From the NCBI GenBank assembly GCA_963555825.3, contig CAUVXB020000002.1:544001-608000 (forward strand): a stretch of DNA of 64,000 bases. The letters are read 5' to 3'. The notes under the pieces are model-generated. The model did not search any database. It saw only the letters and a list, made by a program, of their open reading frames with translations, and was not told where the DNA came from. This document shows positions 890 to 64,000 of the stretch, piece after piece; position 1 is the first letter of the stretch, and every line of letters begins with the position of its first letter. The stretch comes from Alphaproteobacteria bacterium. Lineage in GTDB: Bacteria; Pseudomonadota; Alphaproteobacteria; JAAXGF01. The translations under genes and the position numbers were made by a program.

Positions 890-4492
<3,603 letters not shown>

Positions 4493-14320: not shown

Positions 14321-15796
<1,476 letters not shown>

Positions 15797-38234: not shown

Positions 38235-38881
38235 GAGACCATCGGCGAGCGTCTCGAGCGGGATCGTCAAGTTCTCTTGCCATTGCCGCCTGCTCCCTAT
38301 GATGCCTGCGATAAGCGCCCTGGACGGGCGAGTTCGCTGTCGCTGGTGCGTTACCGCAGCAACGACTATTCCGTGCCCGTGGCCTACGGCCACCGTGAGG
38401 TGCTCATCCGGGGCTACGTCGATGAGGTGGTGATCAGCTGCGGGGCCGAGGTGATCGCCCGGCACCGCCGGTCCTACGACAGCGAGGACCTGATCTTCGA
38501 CCCGCTGCATTACCTGCCCTTGATCGAGCAGAAGATCGGCGCCCTCGACCAGGCCGCGCCATTGGCGGGCTGGGACCTGCCCGAGGCCTTCATCACTCTG
38601 CGGCGGCTCCTCGAAGCTCGTATGGGCAAGGCAGGCAAGCGCGAGTACGTCCAGGTGCTCCGTCTACTGGAGACCTTCCGGCTCGAGGAGGTCGAGGGTG
38701 CGGTCGGCGACGCCCTGCGGCTCGGCGCAATCGGCTTTGATGCGGTGAAGCACCTGGTACTGTGCCGCATCGAGCGGCGGCCGCCCAGGCTCAACCTCGA
38801 CGTCTATCCGTATCTGCCGCGCGCCCGGGTCGCGATGACGTCCGCCAAGTCGTACATGAGCCTGCTGTCGGGGCTCGGCGC

Positions 38882-43722: not shown

Positions 43723-44536
43723 GTGCCGGACCCGGGCCGCGCAGTGCGGAACCGGTGCCGGGCAGTGAGGCGCCGGGGCCGTAAACGGGCCGCGAAGGAG
43801 ACCGTTGACGGGTTTCGGGCGTGGCTGTTTCTCAGACACGTCGAGACTTATCTGGCGGCGTGGCGGGTGCACTCCGTCCTGCCCGCTCTCGAGCCGGTCT
43901 TCGAGCCCGGTCCCTTCCCGATCCGCATCCAGACGGCGGCGGATCTGGAGGCCGCCCGGTTCGATGTTCTGGCGTGGGCGGACCCCGACGCGGACGGACC
44001 GGCGCCGCCCTTCTGGGTTCAATCGAAGATGGCGGAAGGCGTGCTTGAGCCGGACGCGGAGCCCCTGGTTGCAGAGGTTGCGGCCGACGGGGGCGCGGTC
44101 GAGGGGCTGCGCCTGGCCGGCGGCGACCTGGTGCTCAAGATCGAGTGGGTCGGCGCGGTCGTGCAGATCCGGATCCGGGGCTCCGCGCCGTTCCCCGAGG
44201 ACGGCGGGATCGACATTCGTCACCGCTTCGCGCTGCGGATGCCGCCGACGATGGGACGAATGGTCGACTTCTGGAGCGTGGCGGGCCTGCCGGCCCCTCG
44301 GTTGGGGCGGGTCGGGGGGCGAGGATCGGGCTCTTGTGAAGGCGCTGGACGGACTGCGGGCCGGTAAGACGCCGCGCCAGATTGCCGTGGACATCTACGG
44401 GGCGGACGAGGTGGCCGCCGAGTGGTACAGCGACGGCGGGATGCGCTCGCAGGTCAGGCGGTGGATCGACAAGGCCAGCGCCCTGGCGGACGGCGGCTGG
44501 CGCGACCTGGTGCCGCGCCATGGGCCCGTCGGGTGA
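43723..44536 (+). CDS. FseA-like DUF6499-DUF2285 transcriptional activator, split by a +1 frameshift near 44290-44325
   Basis: Frame 1 has AWLFLRH..Y.AAW and AARFDVLAWADP...PFW; the +1 frame has ALDGLRAGKTPRQIAVDIYG...MRSQVRR...GGWRDLV. Confidence 0.7.
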
Positions 44537-44544
44537 CCGCGTTC

Positions 44545-44793
44545 GGGAGGCGTGCCGGCCTTTCGGACGGGTCGGGAACGGGGGGCGAAGATTGGGAGGA
44601 CTGCAAGTTCGTGAAGGAGCTGGACGGGCAGCGGGAGGACAAGGCGGCCCGCGAGGTCGCCGAGGTCATCTTCGGGCCGGCGGTCGAGGCCGAGTGGCGC
44701 TGCGACGGCGGGATGCGCTCGCAGGTCAGGCGGCAGATCGCCACGGCGCGCGCCCGCAACGGCGGCGGCCGGCGCGATCTCGTGACCCCGTAA
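44545..44793 (+). pseudogene. Degenerate tandem copy of the DUF2285 C-terminal module
   Basis: ELDGQREDKAAREVAEVIFG...DGGMRSQVRR; CGACGGCGGGATGCGCTCGCAGGTCAGGCGG is shared with 44431-44461. Confidence 0.7.
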
Positions 44794-45462: not shown

Positions 45463-47106
45463 ACCCGCATTTCCCAAGTATCGTCGATATTCAGTGCGGC
45501 GAGAAGGCGATTCTGCTATAAGAATCATGAAGTTGTAGCATACATGGAGCGGCGGATATGGCACACCCGATGGGTGAATCGAAACCGGGGTGCCTTCGGG
45601 TCGTTTTTGACCGTCGATTGAAGCTTGAATTCCACGGTTCCAAGATCACCTCTGATGCCGGGTTGCTCGCCTACCGGGAGCTTGACGATGCCCTCGGCCT
45701 GACTGAGATGGCCGAGGGTGTTTTCCAGGATAGCCGTACCGGCAAGAACGGATGGCACGGCATGACGGGTCAGTTTCGCCAGTCCGTTTTCGGGCGCCTT
45801 GGCGGCTATGACGATGTGAACGACGCCGACCGTCTGGGACGCGATCCCGCCATGCGCTGGATTGTTGGCGGCAAGGCCATCGAAAGACAGGCCGCTTCCA
45901 CCAGCCAGATGGGACGCTTCGAGACGGAGCTATTGGCCACCGACGAGAACGTTGAAGCCTTGGTCGACATGAACGGGGTGTGGATCGACAAGGTTCATGA
46001 CCGCCATCCGCCGAAGATGATCATTCTCGACATGGACAGCAGCGTCAGCCCGACCCATGGCGAACAAGAGGGAACAGCGTACAATGGTCACTTCGGCTGT
46101 ACCTGCTAGCATCCGCTATTCCTGTTCAACCAGTTCGGCGACTTGGAGAGATGTTCCCTGCGCCCCGGTAATGTTCACAGTGCCGACGGATGGCGGAATG
46201 TTCTGGAGCCGGTGGTGATGCGCTATAAGGAAAGGAAGGTGCGGCTGTATTTTCGTGGCGATGCCGCCTTCGCCTCACCGGAGATATACGAATATCTCGA
46301 AGCCGAGGGATTACTCTACGTCATCCGCCTCAAAGCGAACGCGATTCTCCAGCGGAACATTGCCCATCTGCTTACGCGACCTGTCGGTCGCCCGCCCGAC
46401 CATGTTCGCCGTTTCCACGCCAGCTTCAGCTATCAGGCCGGATCGTGGAACAAGAAGCGCCGTGTCGTGGCCAAAGTGGAGTGGCACCCCGGCGAGCTGG
46501 TTCCTCGCGTCGGTTTCATCGTCACTAATCTGTCGCGCCCTACCAAGCGGGTGGTGGCGTTCTATAATCACCGTGGCACGGCGGAGCAGCACATCAAGGA
46601 AGGCAAGAACGCCATCAACTGGACCCGTCTGTCATGTCGCAAGTTCCGCAACAATGCCGTTCGGCTCCAGCTTCACGCCCTGGCCTACAATCTGGGCAAC
46701 TTCATGAGGACACTGGCTTTGCCGAAGGAGGTGGAGCACTGGTCGATGACGACGTTGCGCGACAAGCTGGTGAAGATCGGGGCCAAGGTTGTCCGACATG
46801 GCCGCTACGTTACGTTCCAATTGGCTGAGGTGGCGGTGCCGAGGGACCTGTTCCGGAAAATCCTGAGCTTGATTGATGATCTGCGACGAAGACCCGCTCC
46901 GGCGTAGGCCGAGGGAATCGACGGCGAGGAGAAAGCGACAGGAGAGGTGTGTCTGGATGGCGAGAAAAATGACCGAGTGGCCTTCCAAGCGCGGGCCGAT
47001 TACCAAAATCATGCCATCGGATGGCTGCATAGGGGATACAGTTCCCTTGGCGGTGGGAAAGTGGTACGATTTCCACGAATTTGGATGGTATATGGGGAAT
47101 GTCGGT
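45463..47106 (+). mobile_element. IS1380-family element
   Basis: Imperfect IRs ACCCGCATTTCCC / GGGGAATGTCGGT; 4-bp duplication CTAA. Confidence 0.82.
45570..46907 (+). pseudogene. IS1380 transposase with in-frame TAG at 46107-46109
   Basis: ITSDAGLL, LDMDSS, RGDAAF and RGTAEQHIKEGK motifs; CTC-stop-HPLF where Tyr is expected. Confidence 0.88.
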
Positions 47107-47477: not shown

Positions 47478-48852
47478 GAGCTATAACCGAATCTTGTGTA
47501 CGGCGTTGAAATGAAGGCGGCGTATCCTGGTGATTGTTGATGTCACCACTTGAGCTAAGCCAAGGAAGGATACGCCATGAAAGAGAATACCGTTGTTGCT
47601 TTTCAAAACCCATCTGATTTTCAGAAAGATCCGTTGACGGAAGTCCTACAAGCTGGAGCTCGCGAGTTGTTGGCCCAAGCCGTTGAGGCCGAGGTCTCCG
47701 TGTTTTTGGGTAGCCATGCGGCGCTTGTTGACGCCGCCGGCCGCCGCCGGGTTGTCCGCAATGGATATCTGCCGGAACGCTTCATCCAGACCGGGATCGG
47801 CCCGGTGAGCGTGCGCCAACCCCGTGTGCGGGACCGGGGGGACGGCGCCATCCGCTTCACGTCGGCGATCCTGCCGCGCTATCTGCGCCGCGCCAAGAGC
47901 CTGGAAGACCTTTTGCCATGGCTGTATCTGAAGGGCATTTCCACCGGCGACTTCGGGGAAGCCTTGGCGGCGCTCCTGGGGAGCTCCGCGCCGGGGCTTT
48001 CGGCCTCCACGATCACCCGGCTGAAAGAGGTCTGGGGGGTTGAGGCGGAGCGCTGGCAACGGCGCGACCTCACGGCCAAGCGCTACGTCTATTTCTGGGT
48101 GGACGGCATCTATTTCAGCGCCCGCATGGAGGAAGAGAAGCAGTGCATCCTGGTGATCGTCGGGGCCACGGACAAGGGACAGAAGGAACTGATCGCCATC
48201 GCCGACGGCTATCGCGAAAGTGAGCAGTCCTGGCTCGAAGTTCTGCTCGATCTCAAGCGGCGCGGCCTTGAAATGGGTCCGCAACTGGCGCTCGGCGACG
48301 GCGCGCTCGGCTTCTGGAAGGCGCTCCGCCAAGTCTACCCAGGCGCCCGCGAGCAACGCTGCTGGGTTCACAAGACGGGCAACGTCTTGAACAAGCTGCC
48401 CAAGGGTCTGCAAAAGAAAGCCAAGGGGCGCCTGCAAGACATCTGGATGGCCGAAACCAGGAAGGATGCCGAGAGCGCCTTCGACTTCTTCCTGGAAGCC
48501 TACGGGCCGAAGTACGACAAGGCCGCGGCCTGCCTGGCCAAGGACCGCGACGTCCTGCTGACGTTCTACGACTTCCCCGCCGAGCACTGGAAGCATGTAC
48601 GCACGACCAACCCCATCGAGAGCACGTTCGCCACGGTTCGTCTGCGCACCTACCGGACCAAGGGCTGCCTGTCGCGCAAGACGGCGATGGCCATGGTCTT
48701 CAAACTATGCCAGTGCGCTCAGAGAAAATGGAGAAAACTCGATGGATCGAACCATCTCGCCGAGATCATTCGCGGCGTCAAATTCGTAGATGGAGAACGC
48801 CAGGATCGCGCCGCCGCATGATCAGCCCATACACAACTTTTGACAATAGCTC
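47478..48852 (+). mobile_element. IS256-family copy 2, intact
   Basis: 9-bp duplication ACCGAAGGA (47469-47477 and 48853-48861). Confidence 0.95.
47577..48821 (+). CDS. IS256 transposase
   Basis: Translation identical to 31072-32316. Confidence 0.95.
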   Translation: MKENTVVAFQNPSDFQKDPLTEVLQAGARELLAQAVEAEVSVFLGSHAALVDAAGRRRVVRNGYLPERFIQTGIGPVSVRQPRVRDRGDGAIRFTSAILPRYLRRAKSLEDLLPWLYLKGISTGDFGEALAALLGSSAPGLSASTITRLKEVWGVEAERWQRRDLTAKRYVYFWVDGIYFSARMEEEKQCILVIVGATDKGQKELIAIADGYRESEQSWLEVLLDLKRRGLEMGPQLALGDGALGFWKALRQVYPGAREQRCWVHKTGNVLNKLPKGLQKKAKGRLQDIWMAETRKDAESAFDFFLEAYGPKYDKAAACLAKDRDVLLTFYDFPAEHWKHVRTTNPIESTFATVRLRTYRTKGCLSRKTAMAMVFKLCQCAQRKWRKLDGSNHLAEIIRGVKFVDGERQDRAAA

Positions 48853-49076: not shown

Positions 49077-49215
49077 CCCGCTTCCCTACCGCGACCCTTC
49101 GCCTTGCGGAATGAAATAGAGCGCGGGTCGCTGACCGCGCTGCGGGAGAAGTTGGTATCTGTGTCCTCGACTTGTGCTATATCAATCAGCCGAAATACGT
49201 TTTCCTGGAGCCCGT

Positions 49216-50610
49216 ATGCGCATCCCTGGAGCCGATAAGGCTATCGACAATCTCATTAAATGGTCCGCGAACGAGGAGTGGAACCCTTTTCGTGAGCAGG
49301 TATTCGCGGAGCATTTTGACATGATCTTCGACCGCTTCGACACCACCAAGGAGGAAATCGCCGACCTTCTAGGCGATTCATTTGGCATGGTGTTCGGGTG
49401 CGTCCTCGAGGACTTCTTTACCGCCAGATTTGGCGACAAGGGCGATAACATCATTGATGACTACCTGAAGCGACGGGGGTGGCGGGAGAAAATCTCGGCA
49501 AAACGTTACCTGGAGGCCATCAGGGACTCTGTTTTGTCGCTCTACGAGGTCGTTGACCTAGATCCGGGACACAGTATGACGGTCAGGGATTTGGTATTGG
49601 GGGGCGATACTATCACTGTAGAGGAAAAGCTTGGGTCGGAAACGGCCGCGCGGTGGGACCGGATTGCTGGACGGATCGTGACGGTCAACAAGAAGGTCTA
49701 TTTCACCGGCTCCTTGCTGCTGTTCCCGCACGAGGTGGCGGATGAGATTCTTTCCGGCATCGAGGAGATGGTCAAGAGTATCAAGAAGAAGCTCCAGAGG
49801 GAGGCCAAGAAGCAGGGAGAACCAGCGGATTTCAAGGACAGAGACCTGCGGGAGATGTTTCTTCACGCGAGCGCCCGCCTATTCACCCGGACTTGGCTGA
49901 TTGATGTTCTGGATCGAGCCTCAGAACCTTTACCCGAGATCCGCAATACCGATGGCGATGAGATCGTGTTCTCAGAAGCCCGGTTTCCAATCACCGGCGA
50001 ACTTGCCAGTGTCATCGTCGGCCTCGACGCAATCAACGAGTTCGAAAGGGACGACCCCGACGAATTGCAATGGACTTGGCATGGACATGGTTCACCATCC
50101 AAGAGGGTGTCGCGAGGAAAGGGCCACACCTTCAAGGCGGACGATGATGCCGGTCGAACCATACTGGGCAACATCGAGATCGGTGAGGACGCACTAGTCC
50201 TGAGCACGAATTCGAAGGAACGCGCCGATAAGGGCCGGGACCTATTGCTTTCTCGCCTTGATGGGTTGGTTGGCCAGCCTCTGACCTCACATCAGACCCC
50301 GGAGAAAATGCTTGATGAGCGATCCGGTTCCGCTCCTGTGCAGTCCGAACTGCCTCCCGAAGTGGCAGAGCAAGTCATCCATTCCTATTTGGAAACCCAT
50401 TATCGGCAGGCCCTCGATGACCCGCTGCCTTATCTCGACGGCAAAACACCTCGACAAGCCGCAAAGACCAAAAAGGGCAGAGCGCAAGTGATAAATTGGC
50501 TCAAGAAACTGGAAAACTCGGAAGCCAGGCGCGCTGCTAGTGAAGGGCAAGAGCCCTATAACTTCCAGTGGATGTGGCGGGAGATGAAGATCGACGATGC
50601 TCGTCGCTAA
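49216..50610 (+). CDS. Hypothetical protein with a C-terminal Xre/MbcA/ParS-antitoxin-like (DUF2384) motif
   Basis: Long ORF; SLYEV and LDDPLPYLDGKTPRQAA motifs. Confidence 0.65.
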   Translation: MRIPGADKAIDNLIKWSANEEWNPFREQVFAEHFDMIFDRFDTTKEEIADLLGDSFGMVFGCVLEDFFTARFGDKGDNIIDDYLKRRGWREKISAKRYLEAIRDSVLSLYEVVDLDPGHSMTVRDLVLGGDTITVEEKLGSETAARWDRIAGRIVTVNKKVYFTGSLLLFPHEVADEILSGIEEMVKSIKKKLQREAKKQGEPADFKDRDLREMFLHASARLFTRTWLIDVLDRASEPLPEIRNTDGDEIVFSEARFPITGELASVIVGLDAINEFERDDPDELQWTWHGHGSPSKRVSRGKGHTFKADDDAGRTILGNIEIGEDALVLSTNSKERADKGRDLLLSRLDGLVGQPLTSHQTPEKMLDERSGSAPVQSELPPEVAEQVIHSYLETHYRQALDDPLPYLDGKTPRQAAKTKKGRAQVINWLKKLENSEARRAASEGQEPYNFQWMWREMKIDDARR

Positions 50611-50726
50611 GAAAGTAAAACCGTGATCGAAAGCAGAGCCCTAGCAGGAAATCCGGCATAGGCTTTGAATGTCTCTCGTTGGGGGATAAGCGGAAGTTCA
50701 AGGCACGGCCCCAAAGAGTCCGCTTA

Positions 50727-50897
50727 TAATGGGGTGGACGGCCCCACACGGCATCTAGGTGCCAGAAGTGGTAGCTGTTGACTGACCACTTACAAAGGAG
50801 CCGTCCTATGACCGAAGTTAGCACGATTGGGCTTGATCTTGCGAAGAACGTTTTCCAGGTTCACGGGGTCGATGTCTCAGGCGAGACCGTGATCCGC
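50727..50897 (+). mobile_element. IS1111-type left end plus truncated transposase start (ATG 50808)
   Basis: TAATGGGGTGGACGGCCCC end; MTEVSTIGLDLAKNVFQVHGVD. Confidence 0.8.
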
Positions 50898-50945
50898 CCT
50901 AAAGAGTGTCTTAAGTCTCGGTCTGTAGCGCCAAGCGCGAGGCTG

Positions 50946-53900
50946 CTACATGCCCATGCTTCGTCCCCGGGATCTTTTGTGGGTCTGGCGTTCTTCTTCC
51001 TCGGCCGTTTCGCGCGTTTTGGAGTGGCGCTCAACATAGTCGTCGAATTCCTTTTGTGCCGCCTTGCGTTCTTCCCCCGTTGCGTTGTACGCGGCTGACT
51101 GGAGCCGGCTGAACTCGCGAGCGTCCCTTTGTGCGCGGCGCTGGCTTTCCTCGTGCGTCTCCTGCGGTGCGGATTGTTCGCTATGGCGCTCCCGTTCAGC
51201 GGCCTCCGATATCTGCCTGTCGTCCCTGGCCATCAGCCTGCCGATATCGGTGAGCGCCCAGCGCATGCGCTCCAGGCCGAGCGGGATGCCGTTGAGATGA
51301 CTGCCGTAGATAACATGGCCATCCATGATACGCCGGCCGGTCTCGGCCAGCCTGTCGATGTCCGTCCGCCACCTGTCATAGCCGGTGAGACCGGTAACCG
51401 GTCTGTTTAAATCGATCGCGACGGTTTCCAGCACCTCGCTACGATATTCCAGCCGGTCCTTGACCGCAGCGAGATAATCCTCGATTTCACGCCGGGTTTT
51501 GGTCCCTTTGTCGAGTTGGGCGAGCACGTTCCCGAGCGACCGGCGTGGGCGGTCTTCAAGGGCCGGGTTTTTGGCCAACGCTTCCATGCGGGCTCGGAGC
51601 TGTTTGTAGCCTTTCACATATATGGCATGAACACCGGCCCGTTCCGCGGCCGCGAGGTGACGGCTCCAGTCATGTCTCAATACCGAATAGGTATCCCAGG
51701 CGATCTGCTCTTCCGTGTGTGTGGACGGTTCCTTCACGGACGGGGCTGGCGCCACGGGTGAAGGTTGTACATCCGGATCTCGTTCGGTTGGCATGGCAAC
51801 CGTTTCAATCGGTGGAGGGGCATGTGCTGGGTTACGCGGCCTGTCACCGTCAGGCCCTGCAGGCTGGATGCGCCCGTCCGGCACGGTGACTGCCGGTTCA
51901 ACGGCTCCGACGCCAAGCGGCAGCACTCCCTGGCGCCTCTTGGGCTCGATCCCCTGTTGTTCGGCCTCCCGCTTGATCCGATGCACGTAGCGCATCGTGG
52001 ACGCCCGCCGGTGGCGTCGCGCCCGTGTATGGAGATCCTCGAAAGCATCGAGGTCCTTGCGCCCGATGCCGCCGCGCTGGGCCAACAGGGAGGCGAAGTC
52101 GCCGGGCCGGGCGCGGAAGATCTCGGCCTGTTTCAGCAGCACGGCGTGCCGGGTGAGGGTTTCCTGGAAAGCCCCGCTGAGCGCGACGGAGTCGCCCTCG
52201 GCGCGAGTCCGTTCGCGGAGATCGTCGTACGCCGCCAGAACTTGCCCGCGGCCGTCTACGAACGAAGCCACCGCCTGGGCATGACGCCAGCCGAAGGCGG
52301 TGCGCCGGATATCCCGTGCGATGCGAGCCAGCGCGTTGTCGTTCGCCGCCGGACGGGCTTCCAGCGGTTCTCCCCGGGTTTCTCGGATTGACCGGGAATT
52401 GTCCTCCCGGACATTCTCCCGCCGGTCTTCCCATTTGCCCTCGGCCATGTAGTCGAGCGCGGCCTCCTTCGGTTGCGACCGCGACCAGCGTTCAGCCAGA
52501 TACGCCCGGATCTCGGTGTCCGTTACCGCCACTTCCCGGTCGTTGTCCGCTCGCCTGTCGGCGATATCGAGAGCGAGCGGGGCGCGATTGACATAGATGT
52601 CGAGCCCCTCGCGATGGCGTGTCGCGGCGGGATAGATCGTCTCACGCGCGGGCCTTGCATCGGCCAGCAGGAACGTGCGGTCCACGGTCAACCCCTGGGC
52701 CGAGGTGATGGTGAGCGCATAGCCGTGATCGAGGCGGATATTGCTGTACCAGTCGCGGATCTCGTCGTGATGGAACGAGACGGACCGCCCATCCTCGGTA
52801 CGCGCCGATATCAGGACACTCGGCTCCGTACCGGCCTCACCCCTCTCAACCTTGAAGTCGTCCACCGTGACCACGGTGCCGTTGAACAGCTGCTTCTCCC
52901 AGTGGGTGGCGCCGATACGCAGCCTGTCGCCGCGCGCGATCTCGAGCGGCGAAGCCGTCCGTTCGTCTTCCATCCCCCGGCTTACGATCACCGTCACCCG
53001 ATCCGTATCGAGCCGTTCCCCATCCGGCAGGGCGGCGAACCGGCGTTCCCGCATCAGATGCGAAAGAGCCCGCACCTCGGCCCGTGTGCGCGCCAGCACC
53101 ACGCTGGACTTGTCGGGGTTCGCCCGCTGGTAGCGATCCCAGTCATCAACCAAGCCGGTCAACGTCTTTTCTTCATCATATCCGATATGGAACCGGCCTC
53201 TTGCGTGATGAGCCGCGATGGCCGATACCGCATCGCCATCGCGCAAGGCCTCCGACGCGGCAACCTGCCACGGCGTGAACTGGGGCTTCTCAGCCATGGC
53301 CTCGTAGTCGCCAAGAATTTTGGCGCGTTCTTGCTCTCCCATCAATTCCGCGCGGAACCGCGCTGCCTCCGGCGTCTCGCCATGGACATGAACCAGGATA
53401 TCCTCCGGGTCCGCTTTCTGGCGCCGTATGCGGTCCACCCGCACGCTGCCAACGGCGTCGCGGATCAACCTCAACCCCGGTCCCGCTTCCACCGGTTGTT
53501 GCTGCTGTGTGTCGCCCGCGAAGACGATCTTCGCTCCATGGCGTTCGGAGAGTTGGAGAATGTGATGCGCCTGGCGGGTCGACAGCATCCCCGCTTCGTC
53601 GACGATAATGGTGGTATCCTTGTTAATCTCGATCCCACCCCGAGCGGCAAGGCGCAGCAGCTTGTCGACACAGAACGGCCGCGCATCGACATCGTTGCCA
53701 AGCGCCACGGCCGTGCGCCAGGCCACGGCCGTGGCGATAATGCTCTGCCCGTGTTCGCGATAGAGATCGGCAATGGGCCTGAGCGTCGTGGTTTTGCCCG
53801 AGCCTGCCGCTCCTTCGATGATGGCGACCCGGCCCTCGGATGAGGTGACCGAGCGGATCGCCGCGATCTGTTCCTCGCTCAGCGGATAACCCGCCTTCAG

Positions 53901-55213
53901 CAACCCCGCCACCTTTGCCCCGATGGCCTGGGCGGACAAGGAATGGCCCGTATCGGCGGCCATGCCTTCCGCCATATCCCTGACTTCCTGCTCCATCCGC
54001 AGGTTGTGACGGGTCGAATACAGCCTCGTGTGCGCCATATCGGCCCGACCCTCGGCCGAACGCGGCGGGCGGGTCAGGCGCACCACCTCGGGGCTTAGAA
54101 GCACGCGTTCGATACTTGTCGCCACCGCGTCCCGGTTCAACAAGCCGGCGGTGGCGTTGCCCACCCGCTCGACGATATCCGGCAGGCGGAATACCGCTTC
54201 CTCGCGTGTAAGACGGTACGGCAGGTCTTCCAGGACTTCTGTCAGCGCCCGGATCTGCTCTTGGGTAATCTCTTCCGACTTGCCCAATAGCGAGGCAATT
54301 AGTGCCTCGCGTTCGACATATCCCTCCGCCTCGCCGCGCCAGCGCTGATGCCGGATCTCCGGATCGTTGTCCGGCGACTTGCCAGCCCGTGTGATCTTGT
54401 TCGCTGCTGCTGCACGCGGTGCGTTGCCCTCGACCGTAAAGCCCATCTCCCGGGCCGCTTCGATAATCGCCGCCCGGCGCTTCGACCAGTGTCCGATCAG
54501 GTGCTCGGGCATGCCTGTGATACGCGTGAACTCTCCATCCTTGCCGTACTGTTCCATGCGGATGCCGAGACGATCTTGCAGGCTCCAGGCGAGTGTATTG
54601 CGGTAAACCGCCCCCGCCGCCTTCATCCAGGTGTAGACCGGGTGCTGATGCAGCGCCCGGTACTTGCCGTCCCGGTGTGTCCGGGCGGCATTGAAGATCA
54701 CGCAGTGGGTATGCAGCTGGGGGTCGTTATCCCGGCTGGTGCCGTGCTGGAACATCGCTGCCGCGATATCGGCCGGCAGCACCTCGATATCGCCGTCCCG
54801 GTTACGGATACGGGTGTAGGCGCAATGGCGCAGCACCGTCTCTTCCAGCGCTACGCGAGCCGCATCGTTATGCGCGTCTCGATCTTTGAACGTAGCTCGG
54901 GATCGGCGATGGCCCACAAGGCCGAGACGCTCTTGTCGGCGCTGAAGGTCAGGTCGAGACCGGCCGAACGGCGCTCGCTGCCGGCATTCCGCGTTAGCTT
55001 GCCTCCGCCGTTCGGGGCGAAGCCGTGATACAGCCGGTGGAAGTCGCTGCTGTCGACCTTGCCGCCGTCGACAAGACCGAACAGGCCGTTGGGGTTGAAC
55101 CACACTCCGTCCGGCTCTTCTCCCGCCGTGTAATACTCGTTGGGATGGCGGAAGGAGCGCTGGCTCTCCAGGTAGTACGCGGCAGACGCCGCCTGGGCGA
55201 GTGTCGCTACCAC
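50946..55213 (-). pseudogene. mobF: MOBF (TrwC-type) relaxase-RecD-like helicase, left arm, 1-bp frameshift at ~54876
   Basis: AAYY/EYY, DLTFSADKSVS, HGTSRDNDPQLHTH, GAAGSGKTT and DEAGM motifs; N-terminal 120 aa out of frame. Confidence 0.88.
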
Positions 55214-55409
55214 GATGAGCTCCGCAAGGCAGGGGGAATGACCGCGGCGACGGAGCCAAGCGCCGCCTTCCGGCCCGGGGCCGGGACGGCGTCCATGACT
55301 ACTGGAGCGGAAATCCTCATAAGCGTCCGATCGTTACCCGGGTTTCCCAAGCAAATCGTCCCTCGTTGACCGATACTCGGCCACAGTCTCCCTGGGACAG
55401 CGCACTTCA

Positions 55410-55530
55410 GTGCAGAGGTGTGAGAAGTAACAAACGCCATTTCTCTCTCGTTCGCGACCGAGCATACGCATATCGTTCAAGGTTGCAAGGGATTTTTTGA
55501 CACGCCGCAGGGACGGCGCGCAGGTTTGGC
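55410..55530. other. Candidate oriT (left arm)
   Basis: Non-coding, conserved between arms, upstream of the relaxase; GAGGTGTGAG resembles the F nic GGGGTGT^GG. Confidence 0.4.
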
Positions 55531-55800
55531 AAACGCTGGATTTTCACGCTGTTGCATTCGGGGGAGGTTAGGCAAGCGCACGGACCATCATGGCTGGTGT
55601 TTCGGATTGCCAAGGTTCTCATTCCTCAGAACGGTGACCGGATAGCCGGCGAATGCATCTGGGCCTGATTACGAATCCTAATCGAGGGCGACGACAACGC
55701 TTCCCAGACCCTGGCGGCGGCGAGGCAAACCTCGAGGCGGTGGATGTGGCGCCGACGGTCGGCCGAATGTGTGACCGATAATGGCGGAGGGAGACGGAAT

Positions 55801-56103
55801 ATGACTGCGAAACGCTTCAACAAAGCGGATATCGACTTCGATGCCATAGATGGTGAATTGGCGAAACTTGTGCCGCCTAAGCTGAGCCTGACGGATGTGC
55901 TGGACCGTTTACGGAAGCGGCTGGTTGAGCAACAGTCCAAGGGGGTTACGGTGGCTCAGATGCATGAAGTGTTGAAATCGGGCGGCATCGATATCACGGA
56001 GCGCAGTCTGCGGACGTTTCTGACCAAGGGCGTATTGCCGGGAAGGAAGGTTGCCGAGGCCGCCAGGGCCATGGTGTCGGAAGAAGGCAAAGAGCCGTTC
56101 TGA
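55801..56103 (+). CDS. Small hypothetical protein, probable relaxosome accessory/DNA-binding protein
   Basis: GGAG RBS; divergent from the relaxase across the candidate oriT; paralog in the right arm. Confidence 0.65.
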   Translation: MTAKRFNKADIDFDAIDGELAKLVPPKLSLTDVLDRLRKRLVEQQSKGVTVAQMHEVLKSGGIDITERSLRTFLTKGVLPGRKVAEAARAMVSEEGKEPF

Positions 56104-56572
56104 GCCGAATGACGGCGCATATGGGTTCGTCGTGGCGGTTTTCGGGATGCGAATAATGAAGTTGCAATGGGGGATGGCCGGGCCCCAGCGTGGCGCTTCA
56201 GCGCCCGCATACGGCGATGGCGCGAAGTGGCCGAGCCGATAGGCGGCGATGCATCATTCGAAGAACGAGGAGCCGACAGCGAGCGTAAGCTCGCACAATT
56301 GGCGGTGGCGCGAAGCGCCCCGCCATGGGCCGTGACTTTATGCACACGGCATAAAAAAGGGGCCGACCTCCGCTGTGTGATGGCGGGGGCCGACCCTGAA
56401 GGGTGTCGCTACGCGGCGGCGAGAATAATGCCGAGTAGTTGCTAATGCCGAGTGACGTGCGGGGAACGGCTTGTCCGCGCCGATTTCCCACCGATTCGCT
56501 CGGCATTAATTCTGGTAGTCAGTTTTCCGGCAAAGTCGTCCTCCCTTTCGATCAGATGGAGGACGACAACAA

Positions 56573-58144
56573 ATGTCTTCGACACCCAACCGCCGGCCCC
56601 TGCTGGGGACCACAGCACTGGCCGGCTTCGACGCAAGCATTTTCGCGTTCATTGACGATCTTCGTCGTCGCGGCGAGATTGCTGAAGGTCAGTTCCCCAA
56701 GTACCGGTATGCCGCCCGTCACTTCCTGATCTGGCTTGAGCTCACCGGTATCGCGCTCAAAACAGTCGACGCCACAGTCATCGACCGCTTTCTGCGGCAC
56801 GATTGCCGTTGTGCCGCATCGTCCGCACCTGTCCGGCCTCGCCGCTGGCGCAAGGGCCGCACGTCGCCCAAACTCATGACGTTCATCCGCTTCCTTGAGC
56901 GGACGGGGCGGATCGAGACGCCGGGTGAGCTGGACGACAATTTCCAGTTGCTGGACGCGTTCCTCGCGGGCTTGCGCCGCGGTAGATATGCGACCGCAAC
57001 CATCAAACTGTACCGTTACGGCTGCGCCGGTCTCATTGTCTGGCTCCACCTCTCACGGATCCGCCTGCGCGATCTGACACCGGATATTTATGCACGCTTC
57101 CGGAACAGGCAGTTCGTCTGCTCAATCCCCGGGATGTTCTGCGGCCACGAAACGCAGTCACCCGGAACCGCTTACCGAACCGAAGTCCGCGGCTTCCTGA
57201 AGCATCTCGTCGCAATCGGGCGGATTGAACCCCTGGAGCCGTTCCCGGGCGAGAAGGCGCCGTCCGCTCGCCTTGAGAGGTACGCCGTGTGGCTTGAACG
57301 CCATCGCGGCATCTGCCCGGGGACTATACGCCAGCATGTCCGTTTGATCGCAGAGATGCTGCCTCACCTTGGAGATGATCCCGGGGGTTATGGCGCGGCA
57401 CTGATCCGGCGAGTGCTGTTCGAGCATATGGAGCCCTGGTCGCGAAGCTACGCCCAGAGGCTGACAACCGTGATGCGCATGTACCTTCGGTTCCTGGTAT
57501 CGGAAGGCAGCATCGCGGCAGCGCTGGTCGGGGCCGTGCCGACGGTGCCTCAGTGGCGGTTGTCAACCTTGCCACGGTACATCCCGGCCGACGATGTCGC
57601 GCGCACCATCGCCTCCTGCGGTGATGACCCTATGGGCGTACGCGACCGGGCGATCCTGCTGCTTCTGGCACGACTTGCACTGCGGGCAGGGGACATCGTT
57701 GCCCTGCGCCTCGGCGATATCGACTGGGACAGGGCCGAGATCCGTGTCTCGGGAAAGTCACGACGGCAGACGGCTCTGCCGCTGCCCCAGGATGCCGGCG
57801 ACGCGCTCCATGCCTATATCGCGACGGTGCGGCCAAGGGTGGATGAGGAGAAGGTGTTCCTCTGCGTCAACGCACCCTGTCGACCGTTCACCGACTCAAG
57901 CACCGTCAGTGCTGTGGCGGAACGCGCACTCGACCGCGTCGGGGTCAAGACCTTCGCCGGTCGCGGTGCGCATGCGTTCCGCCACTCCCAGGCGACAGCG
58001 TTGCTCAGGTCGGGAGCAACGCTCGATGTCATCCAATCGCTGCTCCGGCACGCCTCCCCCGACACCACCATGATCTACGCCAAGACCGATGCGGTCATGT
58101 TGCAGGAGATCGCCCAGCCCTGGATCGGAGGGATCGAGGCATGA
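56573..58144 (+). CDS. ritA: Tyrosine recombinase RitA (extended N-terminus)
   Basis: LALRAGD, GKS, HAFRHS, LRH and IYAK motifs. Confidence 0.9.
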   Translation: MSSTPNRRPLLGTTALAGFDASIFAFIDDLRRRGEIAEGQFPKYRYAARHFLIWLELTGIALKTVDATVIDRFLRHDCRCAASSAPVRPRRWRKGRTSPKLMTFIRFLERTGRIETPGELDDNFQLLDAFLAGLRRGRYATATIKLYRYGCAGLIVWLHLSRIRLRDLTPDIYARFRNRQFVCSIPGMFCGHETQSPGTAYRTEVRGFLKHLVAIGRIEPLEPFPGEKAPSARLERYAVWLERHRGICPGTIRQHVRLIAEMLPHLGDDPGGYGAALIRRVLFEHMEPWSRSYAQRLTTVMRMYLRFLVSEGSIAAALVGAVPTVPQWRLSTLPRYIPADDVARTIASCGDDPMGVRDRAILLLLARLALRAGDIVALRLGDIDWDRAEIRVSGKSRRQTALPLPQDAGDALHAYIATVRPRVDEEKVFLCVNAPCRPFTDSSTVSAVAERALDRVGVKTFAGRGAHAFRHSQATALLRSGATLDVIQSLLRHASPDTTMIYAKTDAVMLQEIAQPWIGGIEA

Positions 58145-59079
58145 CGGAGAAAGCCACCATCACAGAGCATATCGAGCGCTTTGTCGCGATGAAGCAAAGG
58201 GTCGGTTACCGGTTCACGCGGAGCGGGACGACACTGCGGAGCTTTGCGCGGTTCGCCGAGGGCCGTGACGAAACATTCATCCGTTACGAGACAGCCCTCG
58301 AATGGGCATCGGCATCGGCGGCGGCGTCACGAAACGAGCGAGTGAGCAAGCTGCGAGCGGTCCATGCCATGGCCTGCTGGCTGCATGCCGAGGACCCACG
58401 TCACGAGGTGCCGCCCCGTGATGCTCTAGGTCATCTGTCCAAAAGGAGACCGCAGCCGTACCTGGTATCGGTCCCGGACATCCAGAAACTGCTGACAGCG
58501 GCACTGTCCATGCGGCCCGTCGGCACCATCGCCCCGCTGACCTGGCACCACCTGTTCGGTCTCATCGCCGCAACCGGCCTGCGCATCGGCGAAGCCCTCG
58601 CATTGACGCTGGACGACATCACGCCTGACGGCCTCGTCATCCGAGACACGAAGTTCGGCAAGACGAGGATGGTCGCGCTGCACCCGACCACCTGGGATGC
58701 GCTGAACCGCTATCTGGATGCACGACTCAAGGAGAAAACTCCAGACCGGCATCTGTTCGTGATCGCCACCGGCCGGTGCCCACATAGACAGTATGCGGAT
58801 CACGTCTTCCGCAAAATCGCGGAGCAAGCGGGAATCCGGGAACCCGACGCGGCACGAGGACCGACCCCGCACTCGCTACGGCATTCTTTCGCCGTCCGGT
58901 CACTTGAGAACCTGGCTCCCGGCGTCAACCCGGACCGTCACATATTGGCCCTCGCCACCTACCTCGGCCATGTCGGGGTCTCGAGCACCTATTGGTATCT
59001 GGAATCGACCCCGGTCCTGCTGCGCGGCATCGCCGAGGCCGCGCAGCAGGCTCACGCGAATGGAGGGTCCGATGACTGA
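58141..59079 (+). CDS. ritB: Tyrosine recombinase RitB
   Basis: TGLRIGE, TKFGK, HSLRHSFA and YLGH...TYWYL motifs. Confidence 0.9.
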   Translation: MTEKATITEHIERFVAMKQRVGYRFTRSGTTLRSFARFAEGRDETFIRYETALEWASASAAASRNERVSKLRAVHAMACWLHAEDPRHEVPPRDALGHLSKRRPQPYLVSVPDIQKLLTAALSMRPVGTIAPLTWHHLFGLIAATGLRIGEALALTLDDITPDGLVIRDTKFGKTRMVALHPTTWDALNRYLDARLKEKTPDRHLFVIATGRCPHRQYADHVFRKIAEQAGIREPDAARGPTPHSLRHSFAVRSLENLAPGVNPDRHILALATYLGHVGVSSTYWYLESTPVLLRGIAEAAQQAHANGGSDD

Positions 59080-60064
59080 TCTTGCCCCCCATCTCACCGC
59101 CTTCCTGCAGGAGCACCTGCCCAACGAGCGGCGCTTCAGCCGACACACCGTGCAGAGCTATACCGAGTGCTTCCGGCTGCTCGTCCTCTACGCGGCGGAG
59201 CAAATCAAAGTCCGCCCCTGTGCTTTGAAAATCGAGCACTTCACGGTGGCGCTCCTGCTGGCCTTCCTCGAATCCCTGGAGAAGGTTCGCAACAACAGCA
59301 TCGGCACGCGCAATATCCGCCTCGCCGCCATCAAGTCCTTCTTCCGGTACGTGGAATACCGTGTCCCGAGCTGCCTCGACCACGCATTGCAGGTGCGCGC
59401 CATCCCGCAGAAGCGCGCCGACAAGCCCCTGATCGACTGGCTCGACCGGACCGAGATGCAGGCGATCCTGGATGCTCCGGATACCGCAACGGTGGCAGGC
59501 TTGCGCGACCGCGCGATGCTGCACCTGTGCTACGCCGCCGGGCTGCGGGTGTCGGAACTGACCGGACTCACCCTCGACAGCCTGTCGGGTTCCCAGCTTG
59601 AGACTATCCGCGTCCTGGGCAAGGGGCGGCGCGAGCGCGAACTGCCGCTGTGGAGGGAAACGAAAACCGTCCTCAATGAGTGGCTCGACGTCCGGCCGGC
59701 CGTCAACAACCGCTACCTGTTCCTCAACGCACGGGGGCGGGCAATGAGCACGGACGGCTTCGCATACATCCTCAAGCAGCATGTCGCCACGGCGGCCCAG
59801 AAGGTCCCGTCGATCGACACCAAGCGGGTGACCCCGCATGTGCTCCGTCACTCGACGGCAATGACGATCCTGCATGCCACCGACGATATACGGAAGGTCT
59901 CGTTGTGGCTCGGGCATGCGGACATCAAGATCACCGAAACGTATGTCCGCGCGAGCCCGGCCGAGAAACTGGCAATCCTTGAGATCAACACACCGCCTTC
60001 CATCCGGTCGGGGAACTTCCCGGGTCTGAAGGACAGCCTGATGAGGGTTCTCGGCGGGAACTGA
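59072..60064 (+). CDS. ritC: Tyrosine recombinase RitC
   Basis: GLRVSE, GKGRRER, HVLRHS and WLGH...ETY motifs. Confidence 0.9.
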   Translation: MTDLAPHLTAFLQEHLPNERRFSRHTVQSYTECFRLLVLYAAEQIKVRPCALKIEHFTVALLLAFLESLEKVRNNSIGTRNIRLAAIKSFFRYVEYRVPSCLDHALQVRAIPQKRADKPLIDWLDRTEMQAILDAPDTATVAGLRDRAMLHLCYAAGLRVSELTGLTLDSLSGSQLETIRVLGKGRRERELPLWRETKTVLNEWLDVRPAVNNRYLFLNARGRAMSTDGFAYILKQHVATAAQKVPSIDTKRVTPHVLRHSTAMTILHATDDIRKVSLWLGHADIKITETYVRASPAEKLAILEINTPPSIRSGNFPGLKDSLMRVLGGN

Positions 60065-60514
60065 CTGCCAGAATTAATGCCGAGCGAATCGGCGGGAAAT
60101 CGGCGCGGACAAGCCGTTCCCCGCACGTCACTCGGCATTAGCAACTACTCGGCATTATGCTCGCCGCCGCGTAGCGACACCATTCAGGGTCGGCCCCCGC
60201 CATCACACGGCGGAGGTCGGCCCCCTTTTTATGCCGGGTGCATAAAGTCACGGCCCAAGGCGGGGCGCTTCGCGCCGCCGCCAACTGTGCGAGCTTACGC
60301 TCGCTGGCGGCTCGCCGTTCTTCGAACGATGCATCGCCGCCTCACGGCACGGCGCTTCGCGCCATTGCCGTACGCGGGCGCTGACGCGCCACGCCATATC
60401 CGAAAACCTCCCCCCGCAGATTCGGTGTTCATACCCCGAGAACCGCCACGACGGACCGCCGTTCATTGAACGCCGCTTCCTTGCTTTACGAACCCGCATG
60501 CGCCGTCGTTCGGC

Positions 60515-60816
60515 TCAGAACGGATCGCTGCCTTCTTCGGACACCATGGCCCTGGCAACCTCGGCAACCTTCCTTCCCGGCAATACGCCCTTGTCCAGAA
60601 ACGTCCGCAGACTGCGCTCCGTGATATCGATGCTTCCAGCGTTCAACACCTCTTGCATCTGAGCCACCGTCACTCCCTTGGCCTGTTGTTCGACCAATCG
60701 CTTCCGCAAACGGTCCAGCACATCCGTCAGGCTCAGCTTAGGCGGCACAAGTTTGCCAACACCCCGTCTATGGCACCGAAGTCGATATCCGCTTCGTTGA
60801 AGCGTTTCGCAGACAT
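60515..60816 (-). pseudogene. Paralog of 55801-56103, frameshifted by a 1-bp deletion at ~60755
   Basis: MSAKRFNEADIDF start; TTGGCAAACTT versus TTGGCGAAACTT in the left arm. Confidence 0.7.
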
Positions 60817-60989
60817 ATTCCGTCTCTCTCGCCATTTCAGGATTCGTAATCAGGCCCAGATGCATTCGTCGGCTATCCGATCACCGTTCTGAGGAATAAG
60901 AGCCTTGGCAATCCGAAACACCGGCCATGATGGTCCGTGCGCTTGCCTAACCTCCCCCGAATGCAACAGCGCGAAAATCCTGTGTTTGC

Positions 60990-61108
60990 CAAACCTGCGC
61001 GCCGTCCCTGCGGCGTGTCAAAAAATCCCTTGCAACGTCGAACGATATGCGTATGCTCGGTCGCGAACGAGAGCGAAATGGCGTTTGTTACTTCTCACAC
61101 CTCTGCAC
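60990..61108. other. Candidate oriT (right arm)
   Basis: Inverted copy of 55410-55530. Confidence 0.4.
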
Positions 61109-61303
61109 CCTTAGGTGCTTTGATCTCGATAAATGTAATGAACTTTGCCCTGATTTGTAAAGATCGCACGGCCATTTCGTTAAACCTCTGTAAAATACAG
61201 GAATTCCCAAGGCTGGAATCATGAGAGCTACGACAGTCATATTCCGGCTGTACTCCGGCCAGGTTGTATCCCTATCCGGCAACGTCGTTACCGGGCTGGC
61301 GTC

Positions 61304-64000
61304 ATGGTAGCCACTCTGGCCCAGGCCGCATCGGCTGCGTATTACCTGGAGAGCCAGCGCTCCTTTCGTCATCCCAATGAGTACTACACAGCGGGTGAAG
61401 AACCGGATGGCGTCTGGTTCAATCCGAAGGGCCTGTTCGGTCTTGCCGACGACGGCAAGGTCGACAGCAGCGACTTCCACCGGCTGTATAACGGCTTCGC
61501 ACCGAACACCGGAGGCAAGCTCACACAAAACGCGGGCAGCGAGCGGCGCTCGGCGGGTCTCGACATGACCTTCAGCGCGGACAAGAGCGTCTCGGCTTTA
61601 TGGGCGGTCGCCGATCCGGAACTGCGTTCGGAGATCGAGCGGGCGCATAACGATGCGGCTCGGGTAGCGCTGGAGGAGACGGTGCTACGTCATTGCGGGT
61701 ATACCCGCGTCCGTAACCGGGACGGCGGGATCGAGGTGCTTCCCGCCGATATATCCGCCGCGATGTTCCAACATGGAACCAGCCGGGACAACGACCCGCA
61801 ACTGCATACCCACTGCGTGATCTTTAATGCCGCCCGGACCCACCGGGACGGCAAGTACCGGGCGCTGCATCAACACCCGGTCTATACCTGGATGAAGGCG
61901 GCGGGAGCGGTCTACCGCAATGCGTTAGCCTGGAGCCTGCGAGACCGTCTCGGCGTCCGCATGGAACAGTATGGCAGGGATGGAGAGTTCACGCGTATCG
62001 CAGGCATGCCCGAGGACCTGATCGGTCACTGGTCGAAGCGCCGGGCGGCGATTATCGAAGCGGCCCGGGAGATGGGCTTTACGGTCGAGGGCAACGCGCC
62101 GCGGGCAGCGGCGGCGAACAAGATCACACGCGCAGGAAAATCGCCCGACAATGACCCGGAGATCCGGCACGGGCGCTGGCGCGGCGAAGCGGAAGGGTAT
62201 GTCGAACGCGAGGCACTGATCGCCTCGCTTCTTGGGAAGGCGGAAGAGATTACCCAAGAGCATATCCGGGCTCTAACAGAGGTGCTGGAAGACCTGCCGT
62301 ACCGTCTTACCCGCGAGGAAGCGGTATTCCGCCTGCCGGATATCGTGGAGCGCGTGGGCAATGCTACCGCAGGGCTGTTGAACCATGAGGCGGTCGCGAC
62401 AAGCATAGAGCGTGTTCTTCTGAGCCCTGAGGTCGTGCGCCTGACCCGCGCGCCACGGTCGGCCGAGGGCCGGGCCGACATGGCGCACACCAGGCTCTAT
62501 TCAACCCGTCACAACCTCCAAATGGAGCTTGAAGTCCGTGACATGGCGGCCGGAATGGCCGCAGATACGGGACATTCCTTGTCCGCCCAGGCAATCGAGA
62601 ACAAGGTGACGGGGCTTCTGGCGGCGGGTTATCCGTTGAGCGAAGAACAGATCCAGGCGATTCGGGCCGTCACGTCTTCGAGCGGGCGTGTAGCCATCAT
62701 CGAGGGAGCGGCGGGTTCGGGAAAGACCACAACGCTGCGGCCCATCGCCGATCTATACCGCGAACACGGACAGAGCATCATCGCCACGGCCGTGGCTTGG
62801 CGCACCGCCGTGGCGCTGGGTAACGATGTCGATGCGCGGCCGTTCTGCGTCGACAAGCTGCTGCGCCTTGCCGCGCGGGGCGGTATCGAGATCGATGGAG
62901 ACACCACCATCATCGTCGACGAGGCGGGGATGCTGTCGACCCGTCAGGCGCATCATATTCTCCAACTCTCAGAACGCCATGGGGCGAAGATCGTCTTCGC
63001 AGGCGACACGCAGCAGCAGCAACCGGTGGAAGCGGGACCGGGGTTGAGGTTGGTGCGCGACGCTGTGGGCAGCGTTAGGGTTGACAGAATCCGCCGCCAG
63101 AAGGCCGACCTGGAAGATATTCTGGTCCATGTCCATGGGGAGAATCCGGAGGCTGCGCGGCTCCGTACGGGGATGATGGGGGAGCAGGAACGCACCCGCA
63201 TTGTTGCTGAATACGAGGCGATGGAGGATAAGCCTGCATTCACACCGTGGCAGGTGGCGGCATCGGAAGCGCTGCGCGATGGCGACGCGGCATCGGCCAT
63301 AGCGGCTCACCACGCAAGGGGCCGGTTTCATATCGGGTACGACGAAGAAAAGACGCTGACCGGTCTGGTCGATGACTGGGACCGCTACCAGCGGGAACAT
63401 CCCGACAAATCCAGCGTGGTGCTGGCGCGCACACGAGCCGAAGTGCGGGCGCTGTCGTACCTGATGCGGGAGCGTCGTTTCGCCGCCCTGCCGGATGGGG
63501 AACGGCCCGATACGGACCGGGTGACGGTGATCGTAAGCCGGGGGACGGAAGACGAGCGAACAACCTCTCCACTGGAGATCGCGCGCGGCGACCGGTTGCG
63601 CATCGGCGCCACCCACTGGGAGAAGCAACTGTTCAACGGCACCGTGGTCACGGTTGACGACTTCAAGGTTGAGAGGGGCGAGGCCGGTACGGAGCCAAGT
63701 GTCCTGATATCGGCGCGCACCGAGGACGGACGAGAGGTCATTTTCCGTCACGATGAGATCCGCGACTGGTTCGGCAATATCCGCCTCGATCACGGCTATG
63801 CCCTCACTATTACCTCCGCCCAGGGGTTGACCGTGGACAGGACGTTCCTGCTGGCCGATGCACGGCCGGCACGTGAGACGATCTATCCCGCCGCGACACG
63901 CCATCGCGAGGGGCTCGACATCTACGTCAACCGGGCGCCGCTCGTTCTCGATATCGCCGACAGGCGAGCGGACAACGACCGGGAAATTGCGGTGACGGAC
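61304..64000 (+). CDS. mobF: MOBF relaxase-helicase, right arm, apparently open to the window edge
   Basis: MVATLAQAASAAYY start; DMTFSADKSVS, HGTSRDNDPQLHTH and GAAGSGKTT motifs. Missing from the ORF track because there is no stop before 64000. Confidence 0.88.
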   Translation, partial: MVATLAQAASAAYYLESQRSFRHPNEYYTAGEEPDGVWFNPKGLFGLADDGKVDSSDFHRLYNGFAPNTGGKLTQNAGSERRSAGLDMTFSADKSVSALWAVADPELRSEIERAHNDAARVALEETVLRHCGYTRVRNRDGGIEVLPADISAAMFQHGTSRDNDPQLHTHCVIFNAARTHRDGKYRALHQHPVYTWMKAAGAVYRNALAWSLRDRLGVRMEQYGRDGEFTRIAGMPEDLIGHWSKRRAAIIEAAREMGFTVEGNAPRAAAANKITRAGKSPDNDPEIRHGRWRGEAEGYVEREALIASLLGKAEEITQEHIRALTEVLEDLPYRLTREEAVFRLPDIVERVGNATAGLLNHEAVATSIERVLLSPEVVRLTRAPRSAEGRADMAHTRLYSTRHNLQMELEVRDMAAGMAADTGHSLSAQAIENKVTGLLAAGYPLSEEQIQAIRAVTSSSGRVAIIEGAAGSGKTTTLRPIADLYREHGQSIIATAVAWRTAVALGNDVDARPFCVDKLLRLAARGGIEIDGDTTIIVDEAGMLSTRQAHHILQLSERHGAKIVFAGDTQQQQPVEAGPGLRLVRDAVGSVRVDRIRRQKADLEDILVHVHGENPEAARLRTGMMGEQERTRIVAEYEAMEDKPAFTPWQVAASEALRDGDAASAIAAHHARGRFHIGYDEEKTLTGLVDDWDRYQREHPDKSSVVLARTRAEVRALSYLMRERRFAALPDGERPDTDRVTVIVSRGTEDERTTSPLEIARGDRLRIGATHWEKQLFNGTVVTVDDFKVERGEAGTEPSVLISARTEDGREVIFRHDEIRDWFGNIRLDHGYALTITSAQGLTVDRTFLLADARPARETIYPAATRHREGLDIYVNRAPLVLDIADRRADNDREIAVTD

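Follow-up and report, generated by a model that had tools for sequence, protein, structure and literature searches.

What could place a recombination element of three genes on the axis of a very large inverted repeat, with a relaxase gene facing outwards on either side? This arrangement is found in a 64,000-nucleotide stretch of DNA from an Alphaproteobacteria bacterium (GTDB lineage Bacteria; Pseudomonadota; Alphaproteobacteria; JAAXGF01; GenBank assembly GCA_963555825.3, contig CAUVXB020000002.1, here C2), referred to below as the window (G000:C2:544001-608000), in which a recombinase-in-trio (RIT) element lies between two inverted copies of a MOBF relaxase module. RIT elements have been known since 2009. 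The genome comprises 6.04 Mb in two contigs at 65% G+C; positions are those of the window, and values above 64000 continue beyond it as window-equivalent positions. We propose, at a probability of roughly 70%, that the structure is a rearrangement scar in which two copies of a conjugative element were joined at their RIT attachment sites and the DNA between them was lost, and it is probably not a working transfer device.

The anatomy of the junctions is the first line of evidence. We aligned the module ends of all copies in the genome to define a left half-site (L), a right half-site (R) and a palindrome. Three modules free of a RIT have L joined directly to R, with a shared 6-bp CGAGAA at the join, and the two other RIT copies in the genome (RIT2 and RIT3) are arranged as L, ritA-side repeat, the element, ritC-side repeat, a 27-bp perfect palindrome and then R. 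The window copy (RIT1) reads instead as L, RIT and inverted L: its ritA end meets the left L between 56424 and 56425, and its ritC end meets the inverted right L between 60159 and 60160. Counted across the genome, there are eight L halves, five R halves and two palindromes, both of the latter at RIT2 and RIT3. One of two readings offered by the first-pass annotation, a fusion of two sister elements through their RITs, is therefore supported in substance, since both RIT ends abut L from two diverged copies and the palindrome and both R halves are missing on either side.

The target site can be read directly from the same alignment. R is the 3' end of a YAcAr/SLOG (PF10686) gene that is followed by a DUF7146-Toprim gene and a strawberry-notch helicase gene, a neighbourhood that is conjugative-element backbone, and on its other side the target site adjoins the block of small gene, candidate origin of transfer (oriT) and relaxase. 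Empty sites encode a protein ending in GIPVLLAAA before the stop and occupied sites one ending in GIPVLLVMQSSA before the stop, so that the palindrome provides the last codons and the stop of the YAcAr gene. Three more YAcAr genes (G000:C2:639382, 707297 and 2300485) share a cut about 30 bp before the RIT target, made in each case by one and the same AT-rich IS21-like end, and this position is a second hot spot for insertions in the gene end. The fragment at C2:639382 (window-equivalent 95382-95726, locus L002) is an orphan YAcAr piece 30 kb to the right of the RIT, and could be the R side of the left arm.

The kinship of the arms is the third line. A blastn search of the whole genome detected at least six copies of the relaxase module, 84-95% alike, and two further RIT copies, all on contig C2. 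Three of the six relaxase-bearing copies abut a RIT and a fourth carries a RIT footprint, so homologous relaxase modules are RIT-linked in this genome and the refuting condition named in the first-pass annotation, that they never are, does not hold; a seventh, partial copy that lacks the relaxase also abuts a RIT. Copies of the conjugative element in this genome are many, diverged and mostly decayed. The right arm is 94.6% identical to the module copy M4, whereas the left arm is closest to M3 (88.7%) and the two arms are only 87.3% identical to each other. Because the right arm is nearer to M4 than to the left arm, the two are not sisters, which makes an in-situ inverted duplication unlikely.

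Two further observations concern M4. At G000:C2:70886-71031 (locus L003, about 14886-15031) it has an extra L half joined to no more than the first 15 bp of the ritA-side repeat, followed by a repeat of the L region of about 120 bp and then by the empty site; the extra half looks like the footprint of an earlier, largely deleted RIT. Between the Toprim and YAcAr genes of M4 (L003 9465-12650; G000:C2:65465-68650) are two tyrosine recombinase genes of 340 and 416 aa, the RitA-like one 33% identical, and this pair may be a second, distant and incomplete RIT.

Judged by its sequence, the core of the window structure is an ordinary RIT that was recently active. It consists of three adjacent, same-strand open reading frames (ORFs) for tyrosine recombinases, each with a PF00589 match, at 56573-60064. 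All three proteins have the HxxR...Y motif and RitB also a GH, and the alignment of RitC to XerD (1a0p) spans the R, K, HxxR, H and Y positions, which we take to have the catalytic roles of their XerD counterparts. The ritA and ritB genes overlap by 4 nt (ATGA, 58141-58144), and ritC most likely starts at the ATG at 59072, which makes an 8-nt overlap with ritB, whose stop is at 59077-59079; short ritA/ritB and ritB/ritC overlaps of 4-8 nt, as here, are given for RITs in PMC3414803. Terminal inverted repeats of about 100 bp (56425-56524 and 60060-60159) are 97% alike and contain three copies each of a 10-mer, all six window copies of which lie in these repeats, against 0.06 expected.

RIT1 is identical to RIT2 (C2:3599764-3603498) at 3,735 of 3,735 positions, and the third copy is identical too, apart from a 1,459-bp insertion of an insertion sequence (IS). 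In the adjacent 300 bp the flanks of RIT1 and RIT2 agree at only about 93%, so the ends of the element are sharply defined. A 99.5% match over 56124-60163 was rejected as a marker of the element end, as it averages the 100% of the RIT and the roughly 93% of its flank. Since the RITs are identical and the modules 84-95% alike, the spread of the RIT is far younger than the divergence of the modules. RIT2 and RIT3 sit within a segmental duplication of at least 13 kb. Homologues of the rit genes occur on 258 plasmids, annotated only as tyrosine recombinases and often three in a row; none of these is a close relative, the best DNA matches being 64-66% identical and confined to the rit genes.

Reading the layout from the ORF listing and Pfam confirmed the gene order reported at first: relaxase (minus strand), small ORF (plus), the three recombinase ORFs (plus), small ORF (minus) and relaxase (plus). 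The features are as follows.

50946-55259, minus strand: left relaxase as the listed ORF, with TrwC and AAA_30 matches
50946-55213, minus strand: left MOBF relaxase/helicase, broken (Pfam, protein alignment, gap column)
55214-55682: left intergenic region, candidate oriT (conserved block in the six-copy alignment)
55683-55785: 103-bp repeat resembling a miniature inverted-repeat transposable element (MITE), left arm only
55801-56103, plus strand: left small gene in its canonical 100-aa form (four-copy alignment; listed ORF 55744-56103)
56104-56424: left L region, the non-coding module tail that ends in the L half at 56407-56423 (junction alignment)
56425-60159, plus strand: RIT proper, 3,735 bp (identity to other copies, terminal repeats)
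56573-58144, plus strand: ritA, tyrosine recombinase of 523 aa (Pfam Phage_integrase 3.4e-27 and SAM-like N domain)
58141-59079, plus strand: ritB, tyrosine recombinase of 312 aa (Pfam Phage_integrase 1.3e-19)
59072-60064, plus strand: ritC, tyrosine recombinase of about 330 aa (Pfam Phage_integrase 4.9e-31; listed ORF 58793-60064)
60160-60514: right L region, inverted, with the L half at 60160-60176 on the minus strand (junction alignment)
60515-60865, minus strand: right small gene (C-terminal 80 aa conserved)
60866-61303: right intergenic region, candidate oriT (conserved block, 17-mer)
61304-64000, plus strand: right MOBF relaxase/helicase, intact, 1473 aa, running to 65725 beyond the window (Pfam, NCBIfam)

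The arms had been described as homologous for at least 3.9 kb; the homology is real and larger, at 5.6 kb per arm once the sequence past 64 kb is included (50930-56424 against 60160-65739, 78-96% identical; 50930-56524 and 60059-65739 if the RIT terminal repeats are counted), and it ends just beyond the stop codons of both relaxases. The longest inverted pair returned by a repeat finder (52518-54875 and 61643-64000) is 2358 nt at 87% identity, and five inner inverted blocks are 86-96% identical. The two relaxases agree at 728 of 785 aa (93%) against 86% in DNA, which therefore implies many synonymous changes, as had been noted of the arms.

Neither arm is intact: a 1-nt indel affects the relaxase on the left and another the small gene on the right. 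In the left relaxase, a 1-nt deletion near 54877/8, at a site that is not a homopolymer, shifts the first 113 codons, which belong to the TrwC domain, into the ORF at 54851-55213. Pfam TrwC positions 4-103 accordingly fall in that ORF and positions 102-284, with AAA_30, in the long one; the protein alignment of the two relaxases begins only at residue 129, the left TrwC match is split in two in the genome scan, and an alignment shows the deletion as a single gap column. The right relaxase matches Pfam TrwC (2.6e-68), AAA_30, the NCBIfam MobF model NF041492 (213.6 bits; cut-off 100) and PF08751 (231 bits), so that it combines a TrwC-type domain above cut-off with a superfamily 1 (SF1) helicase as a MOBF protein does, and the left copy has the same domains split by the frameshift. 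Four aligned copies define the small gene product as a conserved 100-aa protein that matches no family in Pfam or NCBIfam and whose Atlas scores do not exceed 0.77; the N-terminus of the right copy is altered by a 1-nt indel near 60752-60754. The 103-bp MITE-like repeat, absent from the right arm and with 14 blastn hits spread over both contigs, is inserted in the left intergenic region immediately before the small gene. With insertion sequences at its borders, the left arm amounts to a 5.6-kb remnant.

Both intergenic regions contain a block conserved in the alignment of six copies, and a 17-mer is identical in the two arms (55410-55426 and 61092-61108; two in the window against zero expected). 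The fold of the right-arm region (z-score -1.9) is not convincing as an oriT. The element to which the right arm belongs carries umuDC, a TraG/VirD4 coupling protein, DotA/TraY (TIGR04346, 233.6 bits; cut-off 100) and SSB, with the coupling protein and DotA/TraY genes 10-15 kb from the right relaxase. VirB4/TrbE (PF03135) was not found in the genome; there is no VirB4 family match because the element is of the type-IVB (DotA/TraY) kind.

We then asked how related RITs are placed in other genomes. Scanning one genome per species for RitA relatives gave 29 loci, and we inspected the end structure at 17 of these; the 12 left out were on short contigs, partial or interrupted, distant, a duplicate of L017, or L035 (which is locus L014 of genome G003). 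A single palindrome of 32-36 bp was present at 14 of the 17 (eight on the ritC side, six on the ritA side), and of the remaining three, one had none, one had a palindrome at both ends and one, an interrupted copy, had none. The palindrome co-varies with RIT lineage and is an inverted pair of the terminal motif of the repeat, and at every copy with an identifiable target it stood on one constant side of that target, whatever the orientation of the RIT. Two other metagenome-assembled genomes have RITs at the same YAcAr 3' end (L017/L019 in one, L020/L022/L031 in the other), where the palindrome again contains the stop codon; other RIT copies are located in Toprim genes, and at three loci of one genome the RIT sits within a different TrwC relaxase gene, at the helicase P-loop. 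The expectation that RITs have unrelated flanks and no transfer genes thus fails for this clade, whose members lie repeatedly in conjugative-backbone genes. A close homologue of the window relaxase, small gene or coupling protein stood beside the RIT at none of the 29 loci.

One pair of loci resembles the window in its rearrangement. L032 and L033, in one Pseudomonadales metagenome-assembled genome, are two identical RITs in inverted orientation about 690 kb apart. One copy has no palindrome and is flanked by inverted homologous sequences of 627 bp (74%), and the other carries a palindrome at each end, beyond which lie short flanks that are homologous and inverted; the flank sets of the two copies are unrelated to each other. 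A search of the same genome for an intact version of the gene targeted at L032 gave weak partial matches only. The two loci look like the reciprocal products expected from inversion between two such insertions, which indicates that junctions of the window type recur and are no one-off.

Two other loci hold paired trios. At L017, in a Micropepsaceae metagenome-assembled genome, two 99.9% identical RITs face each other 2.8 kb apart, with a YAcAr gene and a portion of a Toprim gene between them; one RIT is inserted at the 3' end of the YAcAr gene, its partner within the Toprim gene. At L049, on plasmid p3 of Sphingobium sp. CAP-1 (NZ_CP046256.1), two inverted trios lie inside a strawberry-notch helicase gene; this plasmid is conjugative and MOBF, with ParB and Toprim genes adjoining the trios.

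The anatomy of the junctions, the target site and the kinship of the arms are thus read from the sequence itself; from them we infer an order of events and a candidate enzyme. The mobile unit would be the RIT with its repeats and the 27-bp palindrome, and its integration would be site-specific for the last codons of the YAcAr/SLOG gene of a type-IVB (DotA/TraY) MOBF conjugative element, with the palindrome re-creating the gene end. A circular form would bring together ritC-side repeat, palindrome and ritA-side repeat, so that each boundary of repeat and palindrome would present two short inverted arms flanking a 6-bp join. A crossover at one or the other boundary would set the orientation of the insertion and leave the palindrome on the R side, and after integration the second boundary would stay a complete site. 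The window junction could then have arisen by homologous recombination between two RITs inserted in opposite directions in two module copies, or by RIT-catalysed recombination between the intact boundary of an integrated RIT and the empty site of a second copy, possibly on an excised circle. Either route would take the palindrome and R halves out of the junction, and the remaining DNA between the copies may have been lost through deletion or through later IS-driven decay, the region being rich in insertion sequences.

Several points weigh against this proposal. The copies compared lie within one genome and are non-independent observations, and the attachment-site model is purely comparative. 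An R-palindrome-R scar or other reciprocal product is not present in the assembly, so that deletion, inversion with subsequent loss, and capture with subsequent decay are indistinguishable. The stretch is contained in 13 public runs, including sponge metagenomes; the four inspected hold it as short unitigs broken at repeats, with no read-level proof of one spanning molecule, and loose unitig ends that carry the palindrome could derive from other RIT copies. The 1-nt indels of the arms could be assembly errors. The accessible portions of PMC3414803, PMC5737581 and PMC10214605 contain no experimental RIT recombination, and a table in the last marks RIT movement and target specificity as not tested; the same portions describe neither the YAcAr target nor inverted junctions bounded by a RIT, parts of which Ricker et al. 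2013 may already cover.

Among the alternatives, an assembly artefact survives best, though we consider it unlikely. Two separate RIT insertions might have been collapsed through the identical 3.7-kb RIT with the sequence between them dropped: repeats like the three RITs, 100% identical over 3,735 bp, classically lead to mis-joins, and the assembly contains neither the palindrome nor the R halves that the two supposed insertions should have. However, an assembly of two contigs with 99.3% completeness suggests long reads able to span 3.7 kb, and the dropped segment would have had to disappear entirely. Both unusual junctions would in any case still be real DNA, which leaves the account of site-specific insertion unaffected.

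The other reading in the first-pass annotation, a functional, undescribed mobilisable element in which the RIT serves as integrase and two outward-facing relaxase/oriT modules could mobilise DNA in both directions, is very improbable. The symmetrical layout and conserved intergenic regions would suit such an element, as would an intact right relaxase that has genes for a coupling protein and DotA/TraY within 10-15 kb. Against this, the left arm is a remnant whose relaxase is frameshifted and whose intergenic region has taken up a MITE-like repeat, and on the right the small gene is altered. The RIT also appears to move alone, with three identical copies of which two are normal insertions with a module on one side only; its ends lie inside the arms, the arms come from different module lineages, and none of the 29 related RIT loci has the intact design or a close homologue of the relaxase and small gene.

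We give just as little credence to a one-step insertion of the RIT into a pre-existing head-to-head junction of two modules, in which L and inverted L would have mimicked the palindrome of the RIT. Such a target would be conceivable, as the site at which the RIT recombines is a palindrome and L looks like one of its half-sites, but a normal insertion leaves a palindrome at one end (14 of 17 loci) and here there is none, and the genome contains no empty head-to-head junction. Weakest of all is an in-situ inverted duplication of one module around the RIT followed by divergence: mirror symmetry over 5.6 kb and a top identity of 94-96% near the axis could suggest it, yet the high identity near the axis is common to all copies of that segment, the right arm's closer kinship to M4 speaks against it, and the RIT is 100% identical to its other copies, which makes the junctions much more recent than the separation of the two arms.

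The rearrangement scar that we favour has consequences beyond this locus. This genome shows empty sites, normal insertions and a rearranged insertion of one identical element, and related genomes add use of the same target and a pair of reciprocal products; taken together, these observations yield a concrete and testable model of integration. The data indicate that RITs can weld copies of conjugative elements together, which bears on recombination and decay in IS-rich symbiont genomes. More tentatively, and with less than even confidence, we suggest that this RIT clade consists of hitch-hikers specialised on conjugative elements, in which a symmetric attachment site and a few backbone targets would let a resident RIT capture, fuse, invert or delete further copies with its own enzymes, an unrecognised driver of chimerism and decay of which the window would show one product. 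The targets may include the YAcAr 3' end, the DUF7146-Toprim gene, the helicase P-loop of TrwC and strawberry-notch genes; repair of the gene end by the palindrome was read at the YAcAr junction only.

The surroundings of the structure show several other features. The left two-thirds of the window are dense in insertion sequences (24309-26623, 31072-32316, 38211-39646, 45558-46907 and 47577-48821), which comprise IS21 istA/istB copies, two identical IS256-type transposase genes, a split DDE_Tnp_1_4, IS110 and IS630, and between 26 and 36 kb the G+C content declines from about 68% to about 59%. Immediately beyond the left arm lies a single-copy ORF of 478 aa (49174-50610) with no Pfam or NCBIfam family, bordered on its right by a 180-bp repeat (50716-50898) that occurs several times on C2. 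A 103-nt direct repeat at 80% identity (44410-44512 and 44682-44784) is located within or next to an ORF that encodes a RovC-type DNA-binding domain. No matches came from scanning 40-64 kb for Rfam families and tRNA genes.

Compared with described RITs, the element shares the 4- and 8-nt overlaps, the three same-strand genes and the size of about 3.5-3.7 kb (PMC3414803, PMC5737581), along with terminal inverted repeats, a palindrome beside one end in RIT2 and RIT3, multiple identical copies per genome and frequent occurrence in alphaproteobacterial plasmids and genomic islands. What differs here is that the target site, the 6-bp join and the placement of the palindrome at either end can be read from empty and occupied sites, and that at the window copy the palindrome is missing and one target half stands on both sides, in inverted orientation. 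Three-integrase islands (GInt and strand-biased circularizing elements; PMC10214605) likewise have several cooperating tyrosine recombinases and integrate site-specifically, but they carry cargo, a fourth gene and asymmetric ends, whereas a RIT is three recombinases between symmetric repeats.

Relative to MOBF modules of type-IVB (IncI/Dot-Icm-like) elements, the arms share a TrwC-type relaxase fused to an SF1 helicase, a divergent small gene with an intergenic region where the oriT is expected, and a TraG/VirD4 coupling protein, DotA/TraY and SSB close by. Here, however, no complete mating-pair apparatus is seen adjoining either arm, and the copies are IS-ridden remnants whose oriT is a candidate only. 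With Xer/dif core sites as they are generally understood, the boundary of repeat and palindrome shares two short inverted arms around a 6-bp spacer; all three Rit proteins score best against XerC/XerD models, but far below the Xer cut-offs, and unlike Xer they are element-encoded and number three instead of two.

Dispersed copies of mobile elements are well known to recombine with one another and to cause inversions and deletions, as in rearrangements mediated by insertion sequences or transposons. The window structure has in common with these the use of identical copies as portable homology, the formation of new junctions and the loss or inversion of the DNA between. Here, though, both copies would have occupied the same specific site of paralogous elements, which therefore yields a near-perfect large palindrome, and the RIT retains a complete recombinase site, so that its own enzymes could make the join.

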